Both the position numbers and the translations under genes were made by a program. This document shows, one piece after another, positions 1,759 through 44,393 of a stretch of 64,000 nt of DNA. Source of the stretch: Clostridia bacterium (GTDB taxonomy: Bacteria > Bacillota > Clostridia > Oscillospirales > CAG-272); NCBI GenBank assembly GCA_017454675.1, contig JAFTCN010000066.1, forward strand, positions 1,579-65,578, written 5' to 3'. The notes below the pieces were generated by a model, which made no database searches, was not told the origin of the DNA, and worked only from the letters and a program-made list of their open reading frames with translations. Within the stretch, counting starts at the first letter, position 1. Every line of letters starts with the position of its first letter.

Positions 1759-1832
1759 TTAATGTCTTTCCGTATAATATTTCGATTTTTGTTTCCTGAG
1801 AAGCATCCCATGGGTCCGTCGTCAGTGACGGG

Positions 1833-2558
1833 TCAGCCTCTGAATCCGCCGTCGACGGGAAGGACCGCGCCCGTTATGAAGGACGCCTCCTCCGACGCGA
1901 GGAAGAACACCGCCGAAGCGACCTCCTCCGGCGTTCCGAGCCTGCACAACGGCGTGGCCTCGCGGAGCGAGTCCTTCACTTCGTCTGTGAGGCCGCGGTT
2001 CATGTCGGTGTCGATGACCCCGGGCTCGACGCAGTTCACCGTGATGCCCGACGGCCCGAGTTCCTTGGCAAGCGCGGCGGTGAATCCGCGTATGGCCGCC
2101 TTGGAGGCCGAATAGTGGACCTCGCACGACGCTCCGCAGCCGCCCCAGACCGAACCGATGTTCACGATCCTGCCGCTGTGCGCACCGATCATGGCCGAGG
2201 ATACGCGCTGGGTCAGCGCGAATACGGCCGAGAGGTTGGTATCGATCATCGTCCGCCAGTCGCGCTGCGTGATCTGACCGTAGAGCTTGATCTGAGCGAT
2301 CCCGGCGGCATTGACGAGGATGTCGCAGCCGCGAAGCATGGAGAGCGCCTCGTCAGCCGCTGCAATCGAATTATTATACACCGCAAGATTGTATTTTATG
2401 TGACGCGCGCCTGTTTCTTCGGCGATTTTGCCGGCGGCCGCGGAATTTTCTCTGTAAATGAATACCACGTCGTCTCCGGCGGCGCAGAATCTTCTGACGC
2501 ACGCGGCGCCGATGCCGCGTGAGCCGCCGGTTACTATGACTTTTCTCGATTTTTTCAT
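1833..2558 (-). CDS. SDR family oxidoreductase (FabG-like 3-oxoacyl reductase)
   Basis: 241 aa. VTGGSRGIG dinucleotide-binding motif at the N-terminus and a catalytic YSASK (Y-x3-K). Confidence 0.85.
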   Translation of the reverse strand: MKKSRKVIVTGGSRGIGAACVRRFCAAGDDVVFIYRENSAAAGKIAEETGARHIKYNLAVYNNSIAAADEALSMLRGCDILVNAAGIAQIKLYGQITQRDWRTMIDTNLSAVFALTQRVSSAMIGAHSGRIVNIGSVWGGCGASCEVHYSASKAAIRGFTAALAKELGPSGITVNCVEPGVIDTDMNRGLTDEVKDSLREATPLCRLGTPEEVASAVFFLASEEASFITGAVLPVDGGFRG

Positions 2559-2610
2559 GATGTATGCCTCCGAACGGCGAAGGGCGCCGCCGTCAGACTT
2601 TTCAGAGCAT

Positions 2611-2648
2611 TTCCGCCGGCGCCCGCAAATAGGTGGGCGCCGGCGGAA
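2611..2648. terminator. GC-rich 14-bp hairpin between uracil permease and the SDR gene
   Basis: TTCCGCCGGCGCCC-10 nt loop-GGGCGCCGGCGGAA. There is no clear U-tract on either strand. Confidence 0.4.
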
Positions 2649-2692
2649 GATCGGTTAAGCGTATAAGAATCTGGTCAGAGAAAGGAAAGTGC

Positions 2693-4108
2693 TTATTCCT
2701 TCTTTTCCGCTTCGGGCTCTTTCTCTCCGGCTTTCGCCGCGGGAGCCTTTTCGCCCTTCGCGAGGATCACGTTAGCGAGGATGCCGAGTATGAGAGCCAC
2801 GGCTATCGAGGTGATCGTGATGCTGCCGAACAGCAGCTTGAGTCCGCCGACGCCGCAGATCAGTATTATCGAGGCGGGGAAGAGGTTGCGGTTGCTGTCA
2901 AGGTTGACCTTCTGGAGCATCTTGAGTCCGGAGACCGCGATGAAGCCGTAGAGCGTGATGCACACGCCGCCCATGACGCAGTACGGGATGGTCGCGAGGA
3001 AGGTCGTGAAGGGCGCGATGAAGGAGGCGACTATCGCGAGTATCGCGGTGGCGACCGTCGTGATGACGGAGGCGTTGCCGGAGATGGCTACGCAGCCGAC
3101 CGACTCGCCGTATGTGGTGTTGGGGCAGCCGCCGAAAAAGGCTCCCGCCATCGATCCGATGCCGTCGCCGAGGAGGGTGCGGTGAAGTCCGGGGTCCTCA
3201 AGCAGGTCGGCCTCGATGATCGAGGAGAGGTTCTTGTGGTCGGCGATGTGTTCGGCGAATACGACGAAGGCGACGGGCACGTAGGCCACCGCTATCGCGG
3301 CGATGTACTTGCCCATGCTTCCGACGGTCCCGTAATCATAGTTACCGCCGAAAGCGGTGAGGAAGGTGAATCCGGGGATCCACTTCATATCCTTGAAGGC
3401 GGTGAAATCAAGTATCTTGAGAGCATCGATGTTCGCGGAGTTGCCGATGAGGGTGAAGCAGAGCGCGACGGCGTATCCGGCGCAGATGCCTATGATGAAT
3501 GGTATCATCTTTGCCATCTTCCTGCCGTAGACCGAGCAGACGATGATGACGGTGAGTGTGACGAGGGCGACGATCAGGTTGACGCCCGTGCTGAGGTTGA
3601 CGATGTAGCTGCCGTTGGCGTCGACGAGCGCCTCGCCGGCGTTGGCATAGCCGAGAGAATTGAGGACGGCGTTGCCGGAGAGCGACAGTCCGATTATGGC
3701 GACCGTCGGCCCGATGATGACGGCGGGCATGAGCTTGTTGACCCAGCCGGCACCGGCGAACCGGATCACTATCGCGATGATAACGTATACGAGACCGGCC
3801 ATGACGGCTCCGATGATCATGCCGAGGTAGCCGAGAGAGGCGGAGACGCCTCCGGCGAACGCGGCGAACATCGAGGAGAGGAATGCGAACGAGGAGCCGA
3901 GGAACACGGGACTCCTGAATTTGGTCAGCACGAGGTAAACGAGGGTTCCGACGCCGGCTCCGAAGAGCGCCGCCGACTGCGACATTCCGTTTCCGACTAT
4001 CGCGGGCACCGCTATAGTGGCCGCGAGGATCGCCAGCAGCTGCTGGAGCGCGAAGACAATGATCTGCCCCGCCTTGGGTCTGTCGCTTACGTTGTAGACA
4101 AGTTTCAT
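2693..4108 (-). CDS. uraA: Uracil permease (NCS2 nucleobase:cation symporter family)
   Basis: UraA-like blocks GSSFAF, AEHIADH, DPGLHR and NTTYGE, with multiple TM segments. I place the start at the internal ATG 4108 (MKLVYNVSDRPK), which has a GGAGGG RBS 8-10 nt upstream. The 577-aa track ORF carries an implausible N-terminal extension. Confidence 0.85.
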   Translation of the reverse strand: MKLVYNVSDRPKAGQIIVFALQQLLAILAATIAVPAIVGNGMSQSAALFGAGVGTLVYLVLTKFRSPVFLGSSFAFLSSMFAAFAGGVSASLGYLGMIIGAVMAGLVYVIIAIVIRFAGAGWVNKLMPAVIIGPTVAIIGLSLSGNAVLNSLGYANAGEALVDANGSYIVNLSTGVNLIVALVTLTVIIVCSVYGRKMAKMIPFIIGICAGYAVALCFTLIGNSANIDALKILDFTAFKDMKWIPGFTFLTAFGGNYDYGTVGSMGKYIAAIAVAYVPVAFVVFAEHIADHKNLSSIIEADLLEDPGLHRTLLGDGIGSMAGAFFGGCPNTTYGESVGCVAISGNASVITTVATAILAIVASFIAPFTTFLATIPYCVMGGVCITLYGFIAVSGLKMLQKVNLDSNRNLFPASIILICGVGGLKLLFGSITITSIAVALILGILANVILAKGEKAPAAKAGEKEPEAEKKE

Positions 4109-29134: not shown

Positions 29135-29195
29135 ATTATGAAATATTCGTTGGGTATTATGCCGTAAGTGCCTGTACGGGGACATGGTGGGAAGA

Positions 29196-29648
29196 ATGAT
29201 GAAAAAGTGTATCTGTGTTCTTTTTGTTGTTTTGCTGTTTTTTACGTCATGCGATAGTATTAATCATATTGGAGACGAGAGTAGTTTTGAAAGCCAAACA
29301 AATGAAACAACAACTGTTATGAAAAACCCAATTGATTCCATTGAGTTGGAGCCGGACAGAACGGATCTGCCTGATTATTCTGTCCTTCAAAAACTCTCTG
29401 TTGGAATGACATTCACCGAAGCTCAATCCATCGCAGGAAAACCTCAAAGGAGGGAATCTCATATAATACCGGATGGTCCAGGATACTCTTCCGCCTCTAG
29501 TAAAATCTGTTACATTTATGACAGCTCGGACGGTCCATCTGTTCTTGTTTGTTATGCTTGGCACTCTCGCGATGACCTTTCAACATCCGCCTTATTTATC
29601 ACATATGTCCGACCGTTGTCAAGTGAACAAAGCGTTGTGAATCCTTAA
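29196..29648 (+). CDS. Small hypothetical lipoprotein
   Basis: MMKKCICVLFVVLLFFTSC signal peptide with lipobox. The mature part contains an LSVGMTFTEAQSIAGKP motif reminiscent of small SmpA/BLIP-like lipoprotein domains. Composition is low-GC. Confidence 0.6.
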   Translation: MMKKCICVLFVVLLFFTSCDSINHIGDESSFESQTNETTTVMKNPIDSIELEPDRTDLPDYSVLQKLSVGMTFTEAQSIAGKPQRRESHIIPDGPGYSSASSKICYIYDSSDGPSVLVCYAWHSRDDLSTSALFITYVRPLSSEQSVVNP

Positions 29649-32291: not shown

Positions 32292-34058
32292 TTGATACCG
32301 AGAGAGATAATTGAAGAAGTCACGAGAAGGACGGACCTCGTCGCTCTGGCCGGGAGCTACATCCAGCTGAAGAAGGCGGGTTCGAACTGGGTCGGCCTCT
32401 GTCCTTTTCATTCCGAGAACAGCCCGTCGTTCACCGTCTTCGGCGGCGGACAGGAAGGCTTCTACTGCTTCGGCTGCGGTGCCGGAGGAGACGCGATATC
32501 CTTCGTCAAAAGGATAGAGAACCTCGAATACCCCGAGGCGGTCGAATTACTTGCGGCGAGAGCGGGCATCGAGATACCGGAGGACGCGTCCGCCGCCCGT
32601 CGCCGCGGTCCCGACCGCTCACGCATACGGGAGATGAACAAGGAGGCAGCGGTATTCTTCCACTCCGTCCTTATGAATTCTCCGCAGGCCGCAGAGGCGA
32701 GGGAATACCTTGCGAAGAGGAAGATAGGAACGCCGGCGATACGCCGCTTTTATCTCGGATACAATCCGGCTGACGGATACGCCCTTCGCGATCATCTCGC
32801 GTCGAAGGGCTACACGCCGGAGGAGATGACGGCAGGATTCCTGTGCGGAAGGAGCCAGGGCGGAAGGATATACGACTATTTCAGGGACAGAGTCATGTTC
32901 CCGATAGTCGACACTTCGCGCAATATCGTGGCATTCGGAGGAAGGGTCATGGGCGACATCAAGCCCAAGTACCTCAACACATCCGACACGCCCGCGTTCA
33001 ACAAGAGCAAGACGCTCTTCGCGCTGAATTACGCCAAGGACTTCTGCTCCGATTCGCTGATCCTCTGCGAGGGATATATGGACGTCATATCGATGCACCA
33101 GGCGGGCTTCCAGAACGCCGTCGCGACCCTCGGCACCGCGATCACCGAAGAACACGCGAGGATCATCTCTAGATACACGAAAAAGGTAATCCTGTCGTAC
33201 GATTCCGACGAAGCCGGGACCGCCGCCACGGCAAAGGCCATGAAGCGGCTGGGGGCCGTCGGAGTCGAGGTGAGGGTGCTTCGGATCGAAGGAGCGAAAG
33301 ACCCCGACGAATACATCGTCAAATACGGAGCCGACTCCTTCCGAAGGCTGCTCGAAGACAGCCTGACCGGCTTCGACTACAGGCTCGGGAAGATCATGTC
33401 CGGCATTAACCCCGACATACCCGAGGATAGGCTGAAGGCCGCGGGAGAGGCCGCGAAACTCATCGCGGGATACGGTTCGGCTGTGGTCAGGGACACATAT
33501 GTCGCGAAGGCCGCCGGACTGCTGTCGGTAAAGCCCGATTCGCTCGCATCCGATGTCGCGAGAGAGCGGCGCAGGGCGGCAAGGAGGCAGGAGCGCGAGG
33601 AGAGCGAGAACGCGATCTCCGCGGCGCAGTACCTCGGCGACAGGGTGAATCCCGAGTCTGCCGGCAACATCAGGGCAGCCGCGGCCGAAGATACCGTGCT
33701 CGGCATGATGCTGATGTACGACGAATACAGGCAGGCGGCGGCCGGCGGGGCCGTCAGGCTGACCGAGGACGATTTTTACACATCTTTCGGAAAGAAGATC
33801 TTCTCGCTGATCATCGGACTGCAGAAGTCTGACGGCGGGTTCTCGTTCCCCGTGCTGGCGTCGGAACTTACCGACGATGAGACAGGCAGGCTCGAGGGCT
33901 GCAGGGTAAGACGGGCAGGCCTGGAGAACAGCATGGGAATATTCGAGTCGGCGGCGTCGGTGCTGGCCGGCGAGAGCGAGGCGAAGCGCAGGGGAGCGGA
34001 ACATCTTTCCCTCGACGAGATACTCCGCAGAAAGCGCGAGGGTACCGGATTCCGCTGA
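32292..34058 (+). CDS. dnaG: DNA primase
   Basis: Zinc-ribbon CPFHSENSPSF..CFGCG, TOPRIM EGYMDV..DSDEAG. TTG start. It is followed by sigA, the classic order. Confidence 0.9.
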   Translation: MIPREIIEEVTRRTDLVALAGSYIQLKKAGSNWVGLCPFHSENSPSFTVFGGGQEGFYCFGCGAGGDAISFVKRIENLEYPEAVELLAARAGIEIPEDASAARRRGPDRSRIREMNKEAAVFFHSVLMNSPQAAEAREYLAKRKIGTPAIRRFYLGYNPADGYALRDHLASKGYTPEEMTAGFLCGRSQGGRIYDYFRDRVMFPIVDTSRNIVAFGGRVMGDIKPKYLNTSDTPAFNKSKTLFALNYAKDFCSDSLILCEGYMDVISMHQAGFQNAVATLGTAITEEHARIISRYTKKVILSYDSDEAGTAATAKAMKRLGAVGVEVRVLRIEGAKDPDEYIVKYGADSFRRLLEDSLTGFDYRLGKIMSGINPDIPEDRLKAAGEAAKLIAGYGSAVVRDTYVAKAAGLLSVKPDSLASDVARERRRAARRQEREESENAISAAQYLGDRVNPESAGNIRAAAAEDTVLGMMLMYDEYRQAAAGGAVRLTEDDFYTSFGKKIFSLIIGLQKSDGGFSFPVLASELTDDETGRLEGCRVRRAGLENSMGIFESAASVLAGESEAKRRGAEHLSLDEILRRKREGTGFR

Positions 34059-34190
34059 TCCCGGTCCCCACCGTGACACCCGACGCCACCGGCGGAGGCG
34101 GTCAGGTGTACGGATCTTTACAGTACAGAAAAGAAATAATAATAACGGCGCTGTGCCGGAGCGGATACCGTCCGGCCGCGCGCGGGAGGC

Positions 34191-35426
34191 ATGGAAAAGA
34201 TGAACAGAGACTCTGAAAACGAAGGAAAAGAAGCCATGAGCGATATGTCGTTCGATAACGTAAAGGGCAGGAAGCAGAAGGACATCGATCCCGATGACAT
34301 GATCGAGGAGCCGAACGAGGCCGACCTCGCGGCGGTAGACGAAGAGGATCCGTCGGATCTCGACTCCGACCTTGACGTCGGCGTCGACGACGTCGATCCC
34401 GACGTCGATCCCGACGTCGATCCGGACGAGGACGAAGACGACGATGACGGCGAGCGCGATCCCGACGACGAAGAGCCCGACGACGGCGAATTCGGCGACG
34501 ATATGTCGCAGGATGACTACGATTCGCTTGATTTCGGCGACGCCGACGACCTGGAGAAGATGCTCGAATCGGAGGGCATCCAGATCGATGACCCCGTCAG
34601 GATGTACCTCAAGGAGATCGGACGCGTCGATCTGCTCACTTCCGAGCAGGAGTACGAGTGCGCCATCGCGATGAACAACCCCGAGCTGACGGAGGAGGAG
34701 CGCAAGGCCGCCAAGGACAAGCTGGTCGTCGCGAACCTCAGGCTCGTCGTGTCGATCGCGAAGAGGCATGTCGGAAAGGGCATGTTCTTCCTCGACCTCA
34801 TCCAGGAGGGCAACCTCGGTCTTATGAAGGCTGTCGAGAAATTCGATCCGGAAAAGGGATACAAGTTCTCCACGTACGCCACATGGTGGATCAGGCAGGC
34901 GATCAACCGCGCCATAGCCGACCAGGCGAGGACGATCAGGATCCCCGTACACATGGTCGAGACGATCCACAAGGTCTCGAGATATCAGCGCCAGATGCTC
35001 CAGGAGCTCGGTCGCGAGGCCACAGCCGAGGAGCTCGCCGAGAAGATGAGCATGACGCCCGAGAAGGTCAGGGAGACGCTCAAGATCGCACAGGAGCCCG
35101 TATCGCTCGAGACTCCTATCGGCGAGGAGGAGGACAGCCATCTCGGCGACTTCATCCCCGACGACGAAACGCCCGCCCCCGCAGAAGCGGCGTCCGCCAA
35201 TATACTCCGCCAGGTGCTCGAGAAGCAGCTCCACACCCTCACACCGCGGGAGGAGCATGTCATAAAGCTCCGCTTCGGGCTCTACGACGGCCGCTGCCGT
35301 ACGCTCGAGGAGGTCGGCAAGGAGTTCGACATCACCAGAGAGCGCATAAGGCAGATCGAGGCCAAGGCGATAAGAAAGCTCCGCCATCCCAGCCGCAAGA
35401 GCTACCTCACAGGATATTACGACTGA
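34191..35426 (+). CDS. sigA: Primary RNA polymerase sigma factor (SigA/RpoD)
   Basis: Region 2 [10 protein letters not shown] and region 4.2 [28 protein letters not shown]. The acidic N-terminal region contains a DVDP repeat. Confidence 0.95.
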
Positions 35427-35538: not shown

Positions 35539-37389
35539 ATGAATAAACGCTTGATCAGTCTTATTCTATCGGCTGCTATGCTCGTAGGCGTACTGCTTAC
35601 CGGTTGTTCGCAGGAAGAACCGGTTGATCCCAACGCGCCTACGAAACAGCTCGCGTCAGCCAGCGCCAAGACGGTGTCGATGTATGTCGTGACCGAGAAC
35701 GATGTCTCGGAAGAGACCGCGGCCAAAGTCACAGACGCGTTCAACCAGATCACCAAGGCGAAATTCAAGACGAGAGTAGTCCTTCATTTCTATACATATG
35801 ACAATTATTACACGGCCATAGAGAAGGTCATTGCTGACAACGCCGCCCGTGAGGCTATGAAGGAAGAGCACCAGAAGGCTCTCAAGGCCGCAAAGGCGGA
35901 GGCTAAGGCTGAAGAGATTCCCACCGATTCCGAGTGGTTCGATCAGTTCTACATCAAACATCCGGAATACGCCGAGTTCAGAGAGACCCAGGAGCTCACC
36001 GGTGAAGACACCACCGCCGAAGAGACCGAGACGATGGCGATCTCTGGCACCGAGAACTTCTTTATCACTTCGGTCAAGTATCCGGAGGAGAAGGTCGGTC
36101 AGCTCGACATCATCTGGATCGACAGCTACGACAGATATATGGACTACATAGGCAGGGAATGGCTGTCCAGACTAGACGACGAACTCACCGCCTCGTCCAA
36201 GAAACTCAAGGAGTATATCTCTCCCGAGCTTCTCGCGTGGGCAAAATGGGCCGGCAGCGGCACTTACGCGATCCCGAACAACTGCGTCGTGGGTGAGTAC
36301 ACCTACATGCTCCTCAACAAGAAGTATGTCGACAAGTACAACTACGATCCCGCGACGATGAGCAATCTTGCCTCGACCGATACCGCGAGCTACCTTGCCG
36401 ATATCGCGAAATACGAGCCGTCGCTCATCCCGATCGTCGGCGAACTTCCGGTGACCAATACCATATACTGGAATTATAACGAGGAGACCCGCGCGATCGA
36501 CACCGATAAGTTCTGCATCCTCGGCGAGTACTACAGTTCGGCAAGGACGATAGATCCTTCGGTCACGACCAACATGCCGATCTCGGCGAGAAACCTCTTC
36601 GGTGTATCCTACTACACCGACCAGCTGATGAACATCCAGCGCTACAAGGATGCCGGCTATATCCGCACCGACGTGCCCGTCGACACCGAGTGCGCCCTCA
36701 AGGTAGTAAAGGGCGGCAAGGAGCTCGAGTCCAAATACAGCGACGATTACTACATCAATGTGCTCGAGTACCCGAGGATCTCCGAGGCCAACGTGTTCAA
36801 CAGCATGTTCGCCGTATCCTCCTTCACCAACAGTCTGTCCAGATCGATGGAGATAGTCACCTATCTCAACACCAACGCCGATCTTCGCAACGTGCTCCAG
36901 TACGGCGTCGAGGGAGTCCATTACAAAGTCAAAGCCGACGGCACCGTCGAGCGCCTCAACCACGACTATATGATGAACATCCTCAACACCGGAAACGTCT
37001 TCATTGCGCACCCCGAGGAGAACGCCGATCCCAAAATCTGGGAGTACGGAAAGCTTCAGAATCTTGAGATCAAGTCCGAACTCCTAAACTGCTTCAGAGT
37101 TCCCGAGAAATACCTCGTGCCGCCTGAAGGGGAAGTCAAGGAGGACGAAAAGGTTCAGCTTCTCGATCTCGACCAGCTGAAGACCATCCTCGACGCCAGC
37201 AAGGAAGTCGAGGAGAAACTCAAGAACGTCAAGAACGCGGCTGAACTCGAAGCACTCATCAGTTCTACCGCCGGAATGCTCACGAACGCCATAAGGACGC
37301 ACTCGAGGAGCACGGAGGAAAAAGGTCTCTACTACATCTACTACAACTGGATGCAGGATACGCAGCTCTACATACCGAGCGAAGACTGA
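35539..37389 (+). CDS. Large lipoprotein, extracellular solute-binding-protein-like (LplA/LipO-type), orphan
   Basis: LLTGC lipobox. A 616-aa body has SBP-like blocks (DIIWIDSYD, GTYAIPNN, LLNKKYVDKYNYD). No permease or ATPase genes are adjacent. Confidence 0.55.
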   Translation: MNKRLISLILSAAMLVGVLLTGCSQEEPVDPNAPTKQLASASAKTVSMYVVTENDVSEETAAKVTDAFNQITKAKFKTRVVLHFYTYDNYYTAIEKVIADNAAREAMKEEHQKALKAAKAEAKAEEIPTDSEWFDQFYIKHPEYAEFRETQELTGEDTTAEETETMAISGTENFFITSVKYPEEKVGQLDIIWIDSYDRYMDYIGREWLSRLDDELTASSKKLKEYISPELLAWAKWAGSGTYAIPNNCVVGEYTYMLLNKKYVDKYNYDPATMSNLASTDTASYLADIAKYEPSLIPIVGELPVTNTIYWNYNEETRAIDTDKFCILGEYYSSARTIDPSVTTNMPISARNLFGVSYYTDQLMNIQRYKDAGYIRTDVPVDTECALKVVKGGKELESKYSDDYYINVLEYPRISEANVFNSMFAVSSFTNSLSRSMEIVTYLNTNADLRNVLQYGVEGVHYKVKADGTVERLNHDYMMNILNTGNVFIAHPEENADPKIWEYGKLQNLEIKSELLNCFRVPEKYLVPPEGEVKEDEKVQLLDLDQLKTILDASKEVEEKLKNVKNAAELEALISSTAGMLTNAIRTHSRSTEEKGLYYIYYNWMQDTQLYIPSED

Positions 37390-37404
37390 TAATCTGTAAA
37401 TCAC

Positions 37405-37432
37405 ACGCCCGGCGGGGTCACCCGCCGGGCGT
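37405..37432. terminator. Perfect 12-bp GC hairpin after the SBP-like lipoprotein gene
   Basis: ACGCCCGGCGGG-gtca-CCCGCCGGGCGT. No U-tract follows. Confidence 0.45.
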
Positions 37433-37502
37433 ATAACATGTCAGCCATGCATGCGGTCGCCGGGCAGTCAGGATCGCCGGCGCCCGGAAGCGTGGAACGG
37501 AC

Positions 37503-37706
37503 GGAAGAGTGAAGAGTAAGAGTGAAGAGTAAAAAGTGAATAGTGAATAGTGAAGAGTGAAAAGTGAAGAGGGAGGAATGAATTGGGAAGAGTGAAGTGG
37601 AAATATGATAGAGGAAAGATGATAGAGTAAAGATGATAGAGGAAAGATGATAGAGGAAAGTGGAAAGAGGAGATAGAAAAGAGGAAAGGTAAGAATAAAT
37701 GAAGAT
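37503..37706 (+). repeat. Cytosine-free tandem heptamer array (~26 units; AGTGAAG type, then a 14-mer ATGATAGAGGAAAG x4)
   Basis: Hand parsing. There is no C on the + strand from 37503 to 37706. Units are AGTGAAG, AGTAAG, AGTGAAG, AGTAAAA, AGTGAAT x2, AGTGAAG, AGTGAAA, AGTGAAG, AGGGAGG and so on, then ATGATAG/AGGAAAG alternating from 37605 to 37660. The array runs into ATG 37699. Confidence 0.9.
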
Positions 37707-38643
37707 CAGAACGTACGTCAGCCGGGACACGGAATCGCTGCTTGAGCTCTGGAACTCGGCTCATCCGTCGACGCCGCTGACGATGGAGAGGATGGCAAGG
37801 TTACTATTCCTTGACTGCAACTTTTCTCCCGCGGATCTTCTCGTGGCGGTCGGAGACGATGGCAGGGAACTTCTGGGCATGTCATACTGTCCGCACCGGT
37901 ATTTCGCAGTCGGAAAAGACGGGGACAGGGAGGAGAACAAGGGCTTCATAACCCTTTTTGCGGTCGCCTGCGACAGCTTCGACGATGTCGGAAAAGTTCT
38001 TCTTTCAGTAAGCGAGGAGCATCACAGAAGAGGCGGAAGGAGCATCATATCGACCGCCTACAGCCCGCTGTATCTCACGCAGGGGTTTGAATCGGGTGAG
38101 GAGAACTATATAAGGCTGTTCGAATCGAGCGGATATTCCCGGTCCAGCAGCTATAAACGGTCGGCGTACCTCGCTTCGTTCAGTCTCCCGGGATCATACG
38201 CCGGGGCCAGAAGAAGGCTGGAAAGCGAAGGCATCGTATTCGGCCCGCTCAGATACGAGTATCTTCAGGAGTTCCTTGACCCCGGATCCGAGTTTTCAAG
38301 TCCCGGATGGTCATGGGAGTTCAGGACCCGCCTCACTGCCGACTTCGATCTTGAAAAGGCCCGCACAGCCGTCTGCGGCGGGCATGTGATCGGAGGCTGC
38401 ATATTCGGCGATCCGAACAGCGACGAAGGCAGGTTCGGTCCTCTGGGCGTGTCTCCCGCCTTCAGGGGCAGGGGGATAGGAGGAGTCCTGTTCGCCGACT
38501 GCCTCGAGACTATGAAGAGGCGGGGAATTAAAAGAGCCTGGGCTCAGTGGACCCCCGGGGAAGGGCCGGCGCATGCTCTTTATGAAAAAGCCGGCTTCGC
38601 TATCGAGGCCTGCATCGTGAGCTTCAGAAAAGAGCTGAAATAA
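37699..38643 (+). CDS. GNAT family N-acetyltransferase (two-lobed, 314 aa)
   Basis: C-terminal acetyl-CoA motif FRGRGIGGVLF and YEKAGF. Preceded directly by the cytosine-free heptamer array. Confidence 0.7.
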   Translation: MKIRTYVSRDTESLLELWNSAHPSTPLTMERMARLLFLDCNFSPADLLVAVGDDGRELLGMSYCPHRYFAVGKDGDREENKGFITLFAVACDSFDDVGKVLLSVSEEHHRRGGRSIISTAYSPLYLTQGFESGEENYIRLFESSGYSRSSSYKRSAYLASFSLPGSYAGARRRLESEGIVFGPLRYEYLQEFLDPGSEFSSPGWSWEFRTRLTADFDLEKARTAVCGGHVIGGCIFGDPNSDEGRFGPLGVSPAFRGRGIGGVLFADCLETMKRRGIKRAWAQWTPGEGPAHALYEKAGFAIEACIVSFRKELK

Positions 38644-38677
38644 ATCCGTTTATTCTGCAGAACGACTGACTATATGG

Positions 38678-38809
38678 CAAAGGACCCGCACAGAGGGGAT
38701 ACTTTGATATCCTCGACAGATGCGAGTCCTTTTATATTCGATTGAACCGTCGTGAACCGAACGTTACGCGCAACGGTGCGGGAGGCATGTTACTCAAACA
38801 ACGGATGAG
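38678..38809 (+). repeat. Left copy of the ~130-145-nt imperfect direct repeat flanking the low-GC sigma-fusion islet
   Basis: Aligns by eye with 42248..42393. Shared blocks: CAAA(G/A)GAC, CGCAC, GGATA.TTT.GATATCC, CGAGTCCTTT, TTGAACCGT, GGCAT, ACTCAAA.AACGG. Confidence 0.7.
38679..38738. terminator. Bidirectional terminator hairpin (left copy of the flanking repeat)
   Basis: AAAGGACCCGCA-30 nt-TGCGAGTCCTTT (11 of 12 bp), followed by TTATATT on the + strand and by TTTG on the - strand. It sits between the convergent GNAT and sigma-fusion genes. Confidence 0.6.
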
Positions 38810-38880
38810 TTCCCGGTCGATCGACCGGCATGCGCGACTTTCAGGCTGTGAAGGCCCGAGCGAGATCTTTGAAGTTCAAT

Positions 38881-41800
38881 TTACTTTTCAGACTCCATCA
38901 ATGTCTTTGCCCGTTCGATGTATGATTTGAACCGTTCTTCTTCCCGAACAGAGTTAAACCATTCCCAACCGCGTTTTGCCGTCATTCCGTAATACATTTC
39001 TTCAGCTTTAGGATAAAACAGGTATCCGTAATCAATGCCTTCTCTTGTGCCGTCGGGCAATTCGATGATTTCTTTTCCCTTAATCAGCTTAACGCCGCCG
39101 TAGATCATTTCGTCACCGACATCAAGAAGCGTACCGTCGGGAATGTTTTTCCATGCAGGATACAATTCAAAGGCTTTTTCAAGATAGGCATAGCCTTCTT
39201 CTTTCTTATCCTCGCCGCAACCGAACAATCTGCAGGCGACATTAAAATGTTGACGCCAGTAGCAACCGAGCCATGCCTTCGGGATCTCTCTGTCGTTTGA
39301 TAGATCTTCTATTATTTTGATGATATATTTGCTCCAGGCGGCCGCTTTTTGCGGTGCTGCCCAATACTTGCTTGACCTGCCGAGAAAGTGAAGAAGCAAT
39401 CTGAAATTGTTAACATCGTGACGGAGTCTGCTCTCATCGGTTTTTTTGGAGTCCCAGAGCTCATCCTCGACGATTTCATCATGTACGGAACAGTACATTG
39501 TGATAGGTGACTGTATGTTTTTGATTCCGCATTTGTCGGCCAATATAACGATATCTCCGTTTTCGTCGGCAACATAGGTATATTCGGATGATGCATAAAA
39601 GCCGTCTGTCAATCCGACTGCTTCATATTTGCGCACAAGTCCGTCAGAGATCGGAAAATAACCTTCACTCCTGCCTTTGTAATATGTAAGTTCGTATACT
39701 GCTTTTTTGAGGTTTGCAAGCTCGTTCACAGCTTTGACGATACCGATTCCCTCGGCAAAATAATACTCTTTATTACCGCCGCGGTATTGATGTCCGTCAC
39801 CCATACCGGTAATATCAAACGATATCTTCATACAGTTTTCAAAAGTACCGGCTTTGGTTGTCACAGCGCCTCCGTCTGTGCAGGAGATCTTGGTTTTCAA
39901 AGGGTATTCATCATAAAGAGAGTATTCAATAAGGGAATCTGTTCCGACATTATATTCGTCAGACCAAAGGTATCTGCCGGCATCCTGAAGTATTCCGTAA
40001 ATATGATTACAGCAAAGCGGTTCGCAGCCGTTGCACCATCCTTTCCACTCAAAAGACCAACGGTCATGGCGATTGAGACTTATATGTCCCCGTTCCCTGC
40101 GTACCACAAAAAATACAAAGAAGTTCCAAAGACCTTCTGCAGTCCGCTCCGGGTTCAGAGTCTGATCGGTAGTCATAATTCTCCTTGCAGCCGAAGCAGC
40201 AGCTTTTGTATGAGCTATTTCCATCGGTGTTTTCGCAAGGACTTCCGCCCGTTCTATAGCATGAGAAACGTCGCAAAGCTTGTATTGTCCGTCTGTTTCC
40301 GTCCAGTATTCATTTCGAATCTGTTCTATCATATCGAGCCACGAATTTTCATCATACCCAAAGCGCTCAATCATTTCTTTGGATGCGATCATGACGGATT
40401 CATCATTCGCATGGATAACCCGGCAGGAAAACTCCGATACCATATACTTCGGATCATATTCGGCTACATACTCCCAGGTATTATCATTTTGCACGGGCAG
40501 AAGCCCCGTCCCGCCGTTAATATGATACTTTCCGAGCAAGCGCGTGTCGGCAGTACCGCCGTTTTGTGCAACATATTTTACGATGCCGATGCCGTCCTTA
40601 TAGTAAACTTTATAAACAGAAGTGCCTTTATAGGGATCATAGTTTTTTGTTATCCAAAGCTGGCAACCGTCAAACACACCAGCAGGCGTAACTACTTTCT
40701 CGCTGTTGCTTTCAAATCTCAACGTTGTCCCGTCAGAACCTGTCATGCATTCTCCGACAGCAAGGTCGTGATTAAAGAAATACCCGTCGCAAAGAGAAGC
40801 TGTCCGGAAAATGCGGTGAATATCGCTGTTGACAGAATTCAAATATCCTTCGCCCGCCACTTCCTCTTTCCAGTATCGCAGAGAAGAATCTGAGTATCTG
40901 AGTTCGTCTGCACGGCAGCCTATCAAATAACGGTTGGGGCTCTTTCCCTTGAATTCACCGTTCAGCTTTTCTTCATTCCGGAGAGTGTTTACGGCGAGTG
41001 CGTAATATGGATCGGACGGAAGAAGCAGTTCTATAGTCTTTTTAGTCGCTTCCACTCCTTCGCTGTATTTTTGTTCTCTGAAACAATAGTATCCAAGCCA
41101 GAACATCTCTCTTGCCAGAGCTTTGGTGAAGCCGGCTTTTTTAAGATACGGGATCTGTTTATCACGGATGAAATCGATTCTGCCCTGGCGGTCATAATAT
41201 GGGATCTGCTGTCTTTCACGGGTCGTGATGAACTCCATGACATCTTCGTTGTGGCCCAGTTCCGCCGATTCTTTGATACGTGCGAAAAGAGTGTCGTTCT
41301 TGTCACCCGGCAGCCACCACCAACCGCGCATAAGAACATCAGCCAGGGCATGATGCTTTTTATCGGATTCAGGCAGTTCTTCCACATCTCTGAGTACGTC
41401 TCTGTAGACAGTTTCAAAACCGTCTTTGCTGTTTTTGAATTGCCAGAGCTTAAGCTCCGCAACCTTCTTCATTACTTTTTCAGCCAGGGTATCGCTCCAT
41501 TTTTCATTCATAGCACACAGCTCCTTTCGAATTCGTTTGCGTCCGTCGTGAAGTTGGGATTTGACCGTGCCCTGTGATATACGCAGCCTGTCAGCGATCT
41601 CGACAACAGAAAGCCCCTCGAAATAATGCAGTTTTATGATTTCTTTTACCTTTGCGGGAAGTCTTGATATCGTTTCGTGAAGTTCAGCCGATTCTTCTTC
41701 CTTTTCATATTGCAGATCAAAGATATCCTTATCCGCAGTATCAAGGTTTTCAACGGTATCGAGCGACAGAAAGCTGCGATACTGCCTTAGCATGTTCATA

Positions 41801-42051
41801 CCGCAGTTTTTTGCAATGCGGCAGACCCATGCAGAAAACTTGCAGGGTTCATTCAATGTGTCAAGCTTTATCCATGCAGTCACAAAAGCATCCTGTGCGG
41901 TATCTTCTGCGAGAAATGCATTATGCGTTACCGAGTAAGCCGATGCAATAACGGCCTTTTGATAACGGTTTACAAGCACCTCATATGCACTCTGTTCGCC
42001 TGCAAGCGTGAGCAACACAAGGGTTTCATCATTTAAGTACCGGTACGACAT
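38881..42051 (-). CDS. ECF-type sigma-70 domain fused to a ~870-aa non-membrane C-terminal region (unknown function)
   Basis: Start ATG 42051 (MSYRYLNDETLVLL) with GGAAAGGA upstream. Region 2 AEDTAQDAFVTAW and region 4 LPAKVKEIIKLHYFEGLSVVEIADRLRISQGTVKSQLHDGRKRIRKEL. No TM segment is evident. A beta-rich module is internally duplicated (V.T.AG.F..C...GIGIVK). Confidence 0.75.
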   Translation of the reverse strand: MSYRYLNDETLVLLTLAGEQSAYEVLVNRYQKAVIASAYSVTHNAFLAEDTAQDAFVTAWIKLDTLNEPCKFSAWVCRIAKNCGMNMLRQYRSFLSLDTVENLDTADKDIFDLQYEKEEESAELHETISRLPAKVKEIIKLHYFEGLSVVEIADRLRISQGTVKSQLHDGRKRIRKELCAMNEKWSDTLAEKVMKKVAELKLWQFKNSKDGFETVYRDVLRDVEELPESDKKHHALADVLMRGWWWLPGDKNDTLFARIKESAELGHNEDVMEFITTRERQQIPYYDRQGRIDFIRDKQIPYLKKAGFTKALAREMFWLGYYCFREQKYSEGVEATKKTIELLLPSDPYYALAVNTLRNEEKLNGEFKGKSPNRYLIGCRADELRYSDSSLRYWKEEVAGEGYLNSVNSDIHRIFRTASLCDGYFFNHDLAVGECMTGSDGTTLRFESNSEKVVTPAGVFDGCQLWITKNYDPYKGTSVYKVYYKDGIGIVKYVAQNGGTADTRLLGKYHINGGTGLLPVQNDNTWEYVAEYDPKYMVSEFSCRVIHANDESVMIASKEMIERFGYDENSWLDMIEQIRNEYWTETDGQYKLCDVSHAIERAEVLAKTPMEIAHTKAAASAARRIMTTDQTLNPERTAEGLWNFFVFFVVRRERGHISLNRHDRWSFEWKGWCNGCEPLCCNHIYGILQDAGRYLWSDEYNVGTDSLIEYSLYDEYPLKTKISCTDGGAVTTKAGTFENCMKISFDITGMGDGHQYRGGNKEYYFAEGIGIVKAVNELANLKKAVYELTYYKGRSEGYFPISDGLVRKYEAVGLTDGFYASSEYTYVADENGDIVILADKCGIKNIQSPITMYCSVHDEIVEDELWDSKKTDESRLRHDVNNFRLLLHFLGRSSKYWAAPQKAAAWSKYIIKIIEDLSNDREIPKAWLGCYWRQHFNVACRLFGCGEDKKEEGYAYLEKAFELYPAWKNIPDGTLLDVGDEMIYGGVKLIKGKEIIELPDGTREGIDYGYLFYPKAEEMYYGMTAKRGWEWFNSVREEERFKSYIERAKTLMESEK

Positions 42052-42247
42052 TTTTTTCCTTTCCCGAAATGATCTGTTCAGGTGAAAAAACAGCTGTTCA
42101 GATCTGCCTGAGTTTCGATGCATCTGTCATACAGACACAAATTGTATTAAAAAGGTTGGAAACAGAATGTGTTTTTTTTCATGACAGTGTGGTTTTTCTG
42201 AATCGAAATTGCTAGGATGAAAGCAACCTGTTTTATTCCATTACTGA

Positions 42248-42393
42248 CAAAAGACTCGCACTGGCTGGATATTTCGATATCCGGGCCGGTACGAGTCCTT
42301 TCATTATTGTTTGAACCGTTCGCTGACCCGCGGTTTGCGTGACGAACGGAAGGCATTGAGGTTTACGGGGACGGAAACTCAAATAACGGGGAG
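42248..42393 (+). repeat. Right copy of the imperfect direct repeat flanking the low-GC islet
   Basis: See the left copy. Same orientation, and about 70-75% identity by eye with a ~20-nt insertion. Confidence 0.7.
42249..42308. terminator. Bidirectional terminator hairpin (right copy of the flanking repeat)
   Basis: AAAAGACTCG...CGAGTCCTTT stem. On the - strand it is followed by TTTTGT, directly downstream of the P-type ATPase stop. Confidence 0.6.
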
Positions 42394-42431: not shown

Positions 42432-44393
42432 CTATTTGCTTCTATCCGAAAGGAGTCGCGAGCTGTTTATCAGCACCGAGAAGGCGCCGACGTTATGCAG
42501 CACGGCTCCGGTCACCGAGCTGATCACACCGAAAGAGGAGAGTATTATCATCACCGCGCTCACGAGCATCGAGAGGATAAGGTTCTGGTAGATGATCTTC
42601 TTCGTCCTTCCGGCAAGCTCGAGGGTGAAGGGTATATTGGACAGGCGGTTGTTCATCAGCGCGATGTCGGCGGACTGGATCGCGAGATCGGATCCCATGG
42701 CGCCCATCGCGATGCCTATGTCGGCGTCGCGCAGGATGAGCGCGTCGTTGATGCCGTCGCCGACGGCTATGACGCTCCTTCCGGCCTTGCGGAGCTCCTC
42801 AAGGCGTGAAAGCTTGTCCGAGGGCATTAAGCCGTAGAAAGCCCTGTCGACGCCTGATGAGGCCAGGACGGGCCTTCCCGTCGATTCTCTGTCGCCGGTG
42901 AGCATGACGGTATCGGTGACGCCGAGTTCCTTGAGTCTGGCGACGGCTTCCGCGGCGTCCTCTCTGGGGGTGTCGCCGAAGCTCAGCGCGCCGAGAAACC
43001 GGTCGCCGCGGCATACGAAACTGAGCGAGCCTTCGGCATCTTCGGCGAATTCGGGCGGTATCCGGCCGGGGCATTCTGTGTCGAACCATGCGCGCTTGCC
43101 GAACATCACGCGGTCCCCGTCTCCGTCGGTCCCTTCCGTGCCGCATCCCGAGATCTCTCTGATCTCCGCGAGCGCGGGCTCTGTCACGGCGTCGTGAACG
43201 TCAGGGTCGCTGTCGTTTGCGGAGAGCCAGTTCGATACCGCTCTCGATACGGGATGTGCCGAGCCCGCCGACAGCGCTCCAGCGCAGGAGAGGAGCTCCC
43301 GCCTGTCGGCACCTTCGGCGGGATATATGCAGGTAAGGGTCATTTCGCCGACCGTCAGTGTGCCGGTCTTGTCGAAGACCACCGCGTCGACTTTAGACAT
43401 CTTCTCGATGAACTTCGAGTTTTTGATGAGGATACCGCGCTTTGTGGCGGAAGAGAGGGCGGCGACCATCGGGGCCGAACTGACGAGCATCTGTCCGCAC
43501 GGGCAGGACACGACGAGAATCGCTATCGCCCTTGAGATGTCGGAATTCACCAGCGCGACCGCGGCGGCGATCGCCAGCACAAACGGGATGTAGTAGTGCA
43601 TGAACCGGTCGATGAGACGCGATTCGGGGATGTCGAGCTTTTCGGACTGCTCGAGCAGTTTTATGATATTCGAGAACGAGCTGTCGGAGTATTTCTTCTT
43701 CACCTCGACGGTAAGTCTGCCGTCCAGATTGACGGTGCCGGCGTACACCGGGTCGCCGGGGCCGGCGAATACCGGCTCGGCCTCGCCTGTGAGGGATTTC
43801 TGGTCGATGTTAGAGTTTCCGGAGACGATCTCGCAGTCGGTGGGGAAGCCGTCGCCCGGGAGTATCAGCAGACGCTGCCCGGGCTCGAGGACCGATGCGT
43901 CCACCGTGACCGACGTCTCCTGCCCCTGCGCCCCGTCGCCGGTGATAAGCCGCGCGCTCGTCTGGCGCATCCTCCTCAGGCCGTCTATCGCCTCGCGACC
44001 GCCCATTATGCTGCGTTCCTCGAGTATGTGTGCCGCGTTGAGGATGACGGGGATGAGCAGGCCTGTTATGAGCGATCCCGAGAAATAGCATGCCGTTACC
44101 GCTATGGCGACCAGTATCTCCATCGAGTTCGTCAGGTTCTTCCCGAATATCCCCTTTACCGCCACGGCGTATATGGGAATGAGTTCTATGACGATCCCGA
44201 CGGTATATATCAGCGCGACGATCCCCTCGCGCCCGGGGAAGAGCCTCCCCAGCAGAAGCCCGGCTGCCAGCGCGACGAGCCCCGCGGAGCCGGTCACGAT
44301 GTCCACCGTCATGCTTCTTCTGCCTTCGGGCGAGAGGTTGTCCCTCGCAAGGGCGTCGAGGCTGTTCTTAGCCATGTGATCTATGTTTTCCAT
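42432..44393 (-). CDS. Heavy-metal-type (P1B-like) P-type ATPase without N-terminal metal-binding domain
   Basis: DKTGTLT phosphorylation site, TM SCPC motif, SAHPVS (HP motif) and GDGINDA hinge. No CxxC HMA domain at the N-terminus. Confidence 0.85.
   Translation of the reverse strand: MENIDHMAKNSLDALARDNLSPEGRRSMTVDIVTGSAGLVALAAGLLLGRLFPGREGIVALIYTVGIVIELIPIYAVAVKGIFGKNLTNSMEILVAIAVTACYFSGSLITGLLIPVILNAAHILEERSIMGGREAIDGLRRMRQTSARLITGDGAQGQETSVTVDASVLEPGQRLLILPGDGFPTDCEIVSGNSNIDQKSLTGEAEPVFAGPGDPVYAGTVNLDGRLTVEVKKKYSDSSFSNIIKLLEQSEKLDIPESRLIDRFMHYYIPFVLAIAAAVALVNSDISRAIAILVVSCPCGQMLVSSAPMVAALSSATKRGILIKNSKFIEKMSKVDAVVFDKTGTLTVGEMTLTCIYPAEGADRRELLSCAGALSAGSAHPVSRAVSNWLSANDSDPDVHDAVTEPALAEIREISGCGTEGTDGDGDRVMFGKRAWFDTECPGRIPPEFAEDAEGSLSFVCRGDRFLGALSFGDTPREDAAEAVARLKELGVTDTVMLTGDRESTGRPVLASSGVDRAFYGLMPSDKLSRLEELRKAGRSVIAVGDGINDALILRDADIGIAMGAMGSDLAIQSADIALMNNRLSNIPFTLELAGRTKKIIYQNLILSMLVSAVMIILSSFGVISSVTGAVLHNVGAFSVLINSSRLLSDRSK

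Follow-up and report, generated by a model that had tools for sequence, protein, structure and literature searches.

Sigma factors of the extracytoplasmic function (ECF) type form a major route by which bacteria transduce signals, and members that bear fused regulatory domains are prized as self-contained, orthogonal switches. In several described groups, an extension regulates the sigma factor in cis: the SnoaL domain of ECF41 is both inhibitory and activating, ECF238 bears a metal-binding tail, and ECF42 has a tetratricopeptide repeat (TPR) tail that is needed for activity. The longest extensions listed in the consulted parts of the ECF classification 2.0 supplements reach about 400 aa and are membrane-associated. 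Here, we describe a gene in a 64,000-nucleotide stretch (the window) of contig JAFTCN010000066.1 from a Clostridia bacterium (Oscillospirales), which codes for an ECF sigma factor with a soluble extension of about 870 aa. It represents a real, widespread and uncharacterised family of ECF sigma factors with giant soluble tails. By its layout, the protein falls into the wide class of ECFs that carry a fused regulatory extension: beyond sigma4 it has a conserved extension longer than 50 aa, and no anti-sigma gene lies in the neighbourhood. We consider it moderately probable that this is a cytoplasmic one-component sigma factor whose extension controls the sigma domain in cis, whose own promoter is autoregulated, and whose gene reached this bacterium recently as a cassette.

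The gene is one uninterrupted open reading frame (ORF) of 1,056 codons (Table 1), and the same fusion of about 1,050 aa recurs in hundreds of genomes. This identical single-ORF layout rules out a frameshift or two-gene artefact, and the gene thus stands as the single fusion proposed in the first-pass annotation of the locus. An alternative in-frame ATG at 42123 would yield a protein of 1,080 aa (24 extra residues). However, we place the start at 42051 because more than 100 homologues align from the methionine there (consensus MxYxNxxDETLV), while the 42123 ATG is disfavoured because it lies only about 10 nt downstream of the predicted -10 element. An exact-sequence look-up of the window protein returned no record.

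The sigma-70 regions 2 and 4 that had been noticed in the first ~180 aa are borne out by Pfam, NCBIfam and PDB matches; the sigma domain spans about residues 20-181. The Sigma70_r4_2 match covers residues 122-174 (E 7e-17), the protein reaches 99.7 bits with the NCBIfam model TIGR02937 (sigma70-ECF), whose cutoff is 42.9, and the top solved-structure match is SigW (E 3e-20). By its sequence, the protein belongs to the ECF (group 4) sigma-70 family. The SigW model NF007223 (PRK09641) reaches just 103.8 bits against a cutoff of 209, and no equivalog cutoff was attained in the NCBIfam scan; thus, no named sigma factor is its orthologue. Between sigma2 and sigma4, region 3 has no Pfam match, and a disordered linker of about 28 residues (94-119 in the AlphaFold2 model) joins the two. 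In region 2, D50, Q53, D54, F56 and W60 are invariant family-wide. The acidic AED motif of region 2.2 is likewise kept across the family, which supports the predicted binding of core RNA polymerase; the DAED motif of this region is required for core binding (PMC8999054).

The remainder of the protein is soluble. The highest 19-residue Kyte-Doolittle mean is 0.91, well under the transmembrane range, and neither an H-x3-C-x2-C motif nor an anti-sigma Pfam match is present anywhere in the protein, which agrees with what had been read from the translation. A full-length AlphaFold2 model built from 108 homologues (mean predicted local distance difference test, pLDDT, 87.3; predicted template modelling score, pTM, 0.72) and a separate model of residues 365-850 (pLDDT 94.7, pTM 0.90) outline the domain order: sigma2, the disordered linker, sigma4, nine helices (183-364), a first beta-module, a helical linker, a second beta-module and a C-terminal domain.

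The duplication of a beta-rich module, another first-pass claim, is clear from two comparisons. First, BLASTP between the two halves of the protein aligns residues 453-558 with 730-840 (29% identity, E 4e-5). Second, hhalign of the family profiles of the two modules gives a probability of 97% (E 1.1e-10 over 142 columns), while control domain pairs give 0.2-2.6%. Pfam DUF3108_like (PF21347) matches the same short part of both copies, with E 9e-6 for copy 2 and E 0.086 for copy 1 when these are searched as separate segments. Its whole-protein score of 33.3 bits, against a cutoff of 27, is the sum of two partial stretches, each of which covers only positions ~138-184 of the 199-position model. 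Resemblances of the beta region to Bet v1/ARO-CYC, TbpB, haemophore and dirigent folds were vague and are not used as evidence. The fold search with the whole model returned sigma-domain matches only.

TPR-like stretches had been suggested for both ends of the extension, and this holds, weakly, for the N-terminal helical repeat alone. There, the similarity is marginal (Pfam TPR_2 E 0.15-0.28; PDB profile matches of E ~0.01 at residues ~312-350), and searching the extension profile against PDB sequences gave nothing beyond such consensus-TPR matches. The C-terminal end is instead a distinct helical/beta-hairpin module that is common to XRE-type regulators. Eight cysteines (77, 83, 179, 421, 463, 724, 740 and 940) are conserved in 90-100% of the family: sigma2 holds the pair C77 and C83, sigma4 has C179 at its end, and C463 of one beta-module corresponds to C740 of the other (AG.F..C). 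They could form a redox or metal site.

The search for homologous fusions recommended by the first-pass annotation found them in the hundreds. An extension-only query recovered 585 proteins by word-index search, nearly all of ~1,050 aa with sigma domains attached, and an exhaustive search of 1.84 billion representatives returned at least 442 clusters at 50% identity. The few named members are annotated just as 'sigma-70 family RNA polymerase sigma factor' and come from metagenome-assembled genomes (MAGs) of Clostridia, Ruminococcaceae or Oscillospiraceae. Among species-representative genomes, at least 352 loci encode a relative; the 80 that we fetched are all from uncultured gut or rumen Clostridia. 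Over 100 aligned members retain the extension with an identity of 50-85%. One MAG has two copies of the gene (L017 and L023), and some variants of ~840 aa are without the C-terminal domain. Sigma-less relatives were considered as split genes; the one checked, P0167, begins at contig base 31, and its call is truncated by the contig end.

Proteins of a second type, about 375 aa long, match the C-terminal domain only. Six of these (P0217, P0226, P0254, P0263, P0264 and P0238, the last at 2049-3206 of locus L008) align with the C-terminal ~200 aa at 37-53% identity and have invariant W, G, E and R positions in common with it. The three that were scanned with Pfam carry an XRE-type helix-turn-helix head (HTH_3), and a helical region with faint TPR matches precedes the common domain. 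As it is attached both to an ECF sigma domain and to HTH_3, the C-terminal ~200 aa is a portable module used on two kinds of transcription head.

That no anti-sigma gene adjoins the sigma gene, as had been remarked, holds in the window, where the gene is flanked by a GNAT-like ORF (37699-38643, +) on one side and a P-type ATPase gene (42432-44393, -) on the other, and across the family. Clustering of the ORFs within 5 kb at the 80 loci revealed no conserved partner, anti-sigma or protease gene. The neighbourhoods vary between genomes and consist mostly of ordinary metabolic genes, the commonest neighbours being generic ABC exporters (11 of the 80 loci) and an ECF-like protein of ~555 aa (7 of the 80). 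The latter represents a second extended ECF-like family (~530-560 aa) with an unrelated soluble tail of ~380 aa; its genes lie at 139-1821 (+) in locus L066, 2296-3981 (-) in L029 and 4255-5901 in L047, and also occur in L129, L138 and L153. Its promoter, CCCAACCTTTTT-N-GTCTATATAAG, is related to that of the giant sigma genes, with a spacing of N16 versus N18. Some homologues of the giant sigma gene lie beside genes of mobile or defence type (downstream in L004-L006; 9296-9496 in L210), including AlbA_2/Schlafen-like, HinfI restriction-modification, ImmA-like peptidase M78 and TnpV genes; most loci are without these.

The conserved upstream promoter motif that had been proposed as a check is present in 73 of 79 distinct upstream regions. 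The family motif, CCAACCTTTT-N-GTGTCT, is built of CCCAACCTTTT, about 11 nt, and tGTGTCTaaAaGAC; AAC and GTC stand 18 nt apart in 67 loci and 17 nt apart in six, and the motif lies ~59 nt ahead of the start codon. In the window, the site has a position weight matrix (PWM) score of 35.3 and was matched in none of 10 shuffles. ECF promoters are laid out in this way, as a -35 and a -10 block at a fixed distance; ECF sigma factors recognise an 'AAC' -35 and a 'CGT/GTC' -10, often ahead of their own genes, and motifs of the CAACC/CGTC type are given for ECF21, 39, 51, 128 and 213 in the portion of the ECF classification 2.0 supplement consulted. The simplest reading of such a conserved ECF-type motif is positive autoregulation; thus, the sigma factor probably switches on its own promoter.

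These observations also bear on the idea that the sigma-like domain is a mere DNA-binding module of a large one-component regulator and not a subunit of RNA polymerase. The C-terminal domain in common with HTH_3 regulators would fit it, as sensor modules evidently combine with different DNA-binding heads. However, the family keeps both sigma2, which serves core binding and -10 recognition, and sigma4 at ~70% identity, together with the acidic motif of region 2.2, and a two-block motif of fixed spacing points to recognition by a sigma factor and not to an operator. We therefore regard this idea as very improbable.

The leader of the window gene and its equivalents in L010-L089 contain two short palindromes whose sequence varies between loci while the symmetry is kept: the first takes forms such as AAGCGCTT, GAGCTC and GATGCATC, and the second GGGAAnTCCC, GAAAATTTTC and GAAGATCTTC. 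The longest-arm statistic of the leaders stands at z ~16-18 above shuffles. RNAalifold found no consensus structure in them, and when the sequences were folded singly, only 21 of 64 had a paired Shine-Dalgarno sequence. The symmetry looks to be DNA-level, and the palindromes could be an operator or a hairpin. An operator of a separate regulator would suit an alternative in which the extension is a positive scaffold needed for sigma activity, through partner recruitment or holoenzyme stabilisation, with regulation being mainly transcriptional via the autoregulated promoter and the dyad leader. The essential C-terminus of ECF42 and the weakly TPR-like helical repeat are in its favour. Yet, the TPR similarity is marginal, the extension is four times that of ECF42 and dominated by beta-modules with no known protein-interaction signature, and no partner gene is conserved nearby at the 80 loci. 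On balance, we see the scaffold as unlikely.

In our analysis, the extension is best explained as a putative built-in sensor or auto-inhibitor, a role already suggested in the first-pass annotation. This inference draws on four indirect lines: the analogy with ECF41, ECF42 and ECF238, the conservation pattern, the absence of a partner gene and the conserved autoregulatory promoter. On such evidence, the tail could just as well be needed for activity, in the manner of ECF42, or be cleaved off by a protease. Mean column conservation is highest in residues 183-266 (0.84), ahead of sigma4 (0.82) and sigma2 (0.80), and lower in the beta-modules (0.61 and 0.73); module 1 is the least conserved folded domain, and only the disordered linker between sigma2 and sigma4 is similarly low (0.63). 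The sigma factor would transcribe its own gene in a positive feedback loop, and its activity would be governed by the extension inside the same polypeptide. The conserved helices 183-266 would contact the sigma domains or RNA polymerase. The more variable beta-modules, on their own or jointly with the C-terminal domain, would bind a signal from inside the cell, be it a small molecule or a partner protein. Signal binding would then cause a conformational change that permits or blocks holoenzyme formation and promoter recognition.

We also venture a bolder version, which we rate as rather doubtful: that the tandem beta-modules are an unseen kind of intracellular ligand receptor directly gating a sigma factor, that this is by far the largest true one-component sigma factor, and that the C-terminal domain is a portable input on ECF and XRE heads, conveying one gut-specific signal to both classes of regulator across hundreds of Oscillospirales species.

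Several points weigh against control in cis and autoregulation. First, the functional link between the extension and the sigma domain is proposed from sequence and a structural model, in which the sigma4-extension junction has a pLDDT of only ~60. Second, no ligand-binding family is recognised, and the fold search with the model of the beta region gave no match at E <= 1e-3, with TM-scores below 0.35. Third, the promoter type is common to other ECFs, namely the 555-aa type and two of ordinary size; therefore, another sigma factor could drive the giant sigma gene. Fourth, no regulon was found: the PWM scan of the 64-kb window found the gene's own promoter only, and a pattern scan of metagenomes yielded ~17-20 promoters of sigma genes among the at least 120 stretches listed, the others being chance matches, and no regulon member. 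Fifth, expression is weakly indicated by short contigs that cover the gene in four gut metatranscriptome libraries, but this signal is of low depth, runs past the promoter and may include DNA carry-over; these contigs are too sparse to place a start site and read through the promoter.

In the 1.05 Mb of loci, the PWM scan found three extra sites. Two of them, in L066 and L029, are spaced by N16 and belong to the adjacent gene of the 555-aa ECF, which they precede. The third, in L017 (1173-3136, +), is the only second site of the N18 type (PWM score 29.4); a small membrane ORF and the gene of a 503-aa MutS-domain-like ATPase follow it, immediately upstream of that genome's giant sigma gene, and make up a single candidate for the regulon.

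The poorly modelled junction would be compatible with an accessible linker, as expected if the extension kept the sigma factor inactive until a protease cut or degraded it, in the manner of the fused anti-sigma-like extensions of ECF52, ECF53 and ECF115. Proteolysis is one of the three mechanisms known from a review of extension-bearing ECFs. Against this, the protein has no anti-sigma signature, zinc finger or transmembrane segment, no protease gene is conserved nearby, and the segment after sigma4 is the most conserved of the whole protein, unlike a disposable linker. Proteolytic activation is, hence, improbable in our view, and we retain control by an attached sensor or auto-inhibitor as the preferred reading.

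The horizontal acquisition of a low-GC (guanine-plus-cytosine) gene, also claimed at first pass, is attested by three independent lines: composition, low-GC relatives and empty-site contigs. First, the gene has 45.6% GC (gene region 44-47%) in a background of ~59-61% (window ~59%). At about 85 other loci, the GC of gene and flanks agrees, with an average difference of +1.3 points. The only two that stand out, at about -15 points, are the window and L013, its 98% twin in a 'Ruminococcus sp.' MAG from the rumen. Second, the closest homologues (79-85% identity) are in genomes of 40-46% GC, with gene composition to match and the same promoter and leader subtype. Third, near-identical strains are without the gene, and the junctions of their empty sites fall within the flanking direct repeats. 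In metagenome run X44, a contig of 1,975 nt joins 38641 directly to 42225, just 11 differences set its flanks apart from the window, and the gene has zero depth; in run X43, a contig joins 38698 to 42292 via 25 nt that are exactly repeat copy D, and gene depth is close to 0. Thus, in this bacterium the gene is, on good support, a recent import from a low-GC Clostridia lineage.

The resulting cassette has no integrase or transposase. It is bracketed by imperfect direct repeats of ~130-150 nt (77% identical). Each forms a hairpin of ~-31 kcal/mol with T-runs on both strands, so that they resemble bidirectional terminators placed between the GNAT and ATPase genes, which are convergent. The empty site of X44 is a pure U-type copy and that of X43 a D/U chimera; therefore, at least one empty allele arose by recombination between the repeats, and such recombination would delete the cassette in some strains.

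A horizontally transferred cassette that is present or absent among strains might also serve as a mobile alarm against phages or other mobile elements, which would reprogramme transcription upon detecting an invader, and one homologue does lie by restriction-modification, AlbA_2 and ImmA-like genes and another by TnpV. However, the PADLOC defence models gave no match, neighbouring genes are mostly ordinary metabolic ones, and the protein has no NTPase or effector domain. Further, the gene matches the GC of its host in most genomes, which implies long residence there. This alarm function is accordingly extremely improbable.

Table 1. Features of the giant sigma gene and its surroundings, in window coordinates
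Feature	Position	Strand	Evidence
ECF sigma factor with ~870-aa soluble extension, complete ORF	38881..42051	-	1,056 aa and stop, uninterrupted; full-length homologues
Sigma region 2, residues 26-92	41776..41976	-	Pfam PF04542 (Sigma70_r2), E 3e-12; AED...QDAF..W motif
Sigma region 4, residues 122-176, helix-turn-helix reading -35	41524..41688	-	PF08281 E 7e-17; PF04545 E 8e-12
First helical segment, residues 183-266	41254..41505	-	Conservation 0.84; AlphaFold2 helices 183-205, 212-224, 230-246, 250-266
Helical repeat, residues 267-364, weakly TPR-like	40960..41253	-	AlphaFold2 helices; TPR_2 E 0.15; PDB consensus-TPR matches E ~0.01
Beta-module 1, residues 375-563	40363..40929	-	Motif TPAG.F..C ... 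GIGIVK; AlphaFold2; partial DUF3108_like match
Helical linker, residues 571-627	40171..40341	-	AlphaFold2 models
Beta-module 2, residues 638-845	39517..40140	-	Motif TKAGTFENC ... GIGIVK; hhalign versus module 1; DUF3108_like E 9e-6
C-terminal ~200-aa helical/beta-hairpin domain, residues 854-1056	38884..39492	-	Homology to HTH_3 proteins; AlphaFold2 helices 854-1055
Predicted ECF-type promoter	42133..42159	-	-35 CCAACC 42159-42154; -10 GTGTCT 42138-42133; AAC-N18-GTC
5' leader	42052..42132	-	Dyad-symmetric elements GATGCATC, AACAGCTGTT; AGGA ribosome-binding site
Strain-variable 3.58-kb cassette: sigma gene, promoter, repeat copy D	38642..42224	.	Absent from near-identical strains
Direct repeat copy U, terminator-like hairpin -31.9 kcal/mol, between ATPase gene and cassette	42222..42350	-	Fold energy, repeat comparison
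Direct repeat copy D, terminator-like hairpin -31.0 kcal/mol, downstream of sigma gene	38640..38790	-	~77% identical to copy U

Elsewhere in the window, dnaG (primase) and the housekeeping rpoD/sigA gene occupy 32292-35426 (+), ~3.5 kb from the cassette, and a long acidic insertion, rich in D/E, marks the N-terminal part of this RpoD. At 37322-37630, a tandem or low-complexity repeat rich in purines (AAGAGTGAAGAGT..., spaced at 14/21 nt) is covered at thousands-fold depth by contigs of every gut metagenome compared; hence, this type of sequence is either very widespread or repetitive across organisms. A second low-GC patch (29184-29648, +; 44% versus ~59%) holds a 154-aa ORF with a lipoprotein-like signal (…LFFTSC…), which may be another acquired gene. 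An Rfam scan of the window found tRNA only.

The family is abundant in a part of the gut and rumen microbiota that is poorly understood; it occurs in at least 352 species-level genomes, almost all of them uncultured. Its conserved promoter provides a ready reporter for signal hunting, and natural strains with and without the cassette offer a comparison for finding the regulon. Should the tail turn out to be a ligand-gated switch, it would add a new fold for sensing and provide synthetic biology with a useful part; if not, the family would be a well-defined but ordinary addition to the ECF catalogue.

Among known systems, the extension matches none of the characterised ECF extension families, a match that the first-pass annotation had named as refuting its reading: none was found among their descriptions or in profile and fold searches. 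In the portions of the ECF classification 2.0 supplements searched, no group is described with DUF3108-like modules, and none of the signature peptides of the family occurs in the entries listed in the part of its sequence table consulted. With ECF41 and ECF56 (SigJ, Ecf41Bli, SigG1) it has the one-component logic in common; their soluble SnoaL domain, a presumed binder of small molecules, touches the sigma domains or the linker and modulates activity through a conformational change. However, the ECF41-type extension is a single SnoaL-like domain of 100-150 aa, whereas the extension described here is without SnoaL. As Pfam gave no SnoaL match at E <= 1, membership of ECF41, ECF56, ECF205, ECF294 and ECF295 was rejected. 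The match to the SigG1 structure (7qh5) is confined to the sigma part.

ECF42, such as Sven_0747 of Streptomyces venezuelae with its TPR tail of ~200 aa, is similarly soluble, free of an anti-sigma factor and equipped with a helical-repeat tail after sigma4 that acts in cis, as is proposed for the giant sigma factors. In contrast, the extension here is ~870 aa rather than ~200, adds the two beta-modules and the C-terminal domain, and has TPR matches of just E 0.01-0.3. The YCII-domain gene found at position -1 of ECF42 is missing from the 80 giant sigma loci, the ECF42 promoter is given in the source consulted in part as TGTCGAT-N-CGTC versus CCAACC-N-GTGTCT here, and ECF42 occurs in Actinobacteria and Proteobacteria, whereas the giant sigma family is of Clostridia. 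Extension length, domain content, neighbours and promoter thus rule out membership of ECF42.

ECF262 is closer in its phyletic distribution: it is of the Clostridiales, with model proteins from Ruminococcus albus, and likewise has extensions, no anti-sigma factor and, at times, extended ECFs next door, as with the 555-aa gene here. However, the consulted part of its description gives various small domains, some transmembrane helices and no conserved promoter, unlike the uniform soluble tail of ~870 aa and the strongly conserved promoter of the giant sigma family. The single ECF262 sequence compared is 24% identical in the sigma domain, a generic ECF level; by its published description, ECF262 would differ from the giant sigma family.

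Long fused C-terminal extensions, of up to ~400 aa and with putative sensory domains, are also described for ECF52, ECF48 and ECF57 in the portions of the supplements covered. There, they feature zinc-finger anti-sigma-like segments, one or two transmembrane helices and extracellular sensory parts, while the giant sigma factors have neither zinc finger nor transmembrane segment. A Class I anti-sigma or zinc-binding anti-sigma (ZAS) fusion, as in ECF52 and IutY, is ruled out by the lack of the motif, a transmembrane segment or an anti-sigma Pfam match. Outside the sigma factors, the XRE-family (HTH_3) regulators of ~375 aa carry a homologous C-terminal ~200 aa after a helical region, also on a DNA-binding or transcription head. 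They differ in having an XRE helix-turn-helix instead of the sigma domain and in lacking the beta-modules. They are likewise uncharacterised, and their PDB matches cover the helix-turn-helix only, besides two insignificant ones (E > 0.3). Set beside these systems, the family widens the class of fused ECFs in three ways: by a tail of ~870 aa, against at most ~400 aa in the part of the catalogued groups checked; by its solubility; and by its new domain content, namely two beta-modules with no solved relative and a domain common to XRE regulators.

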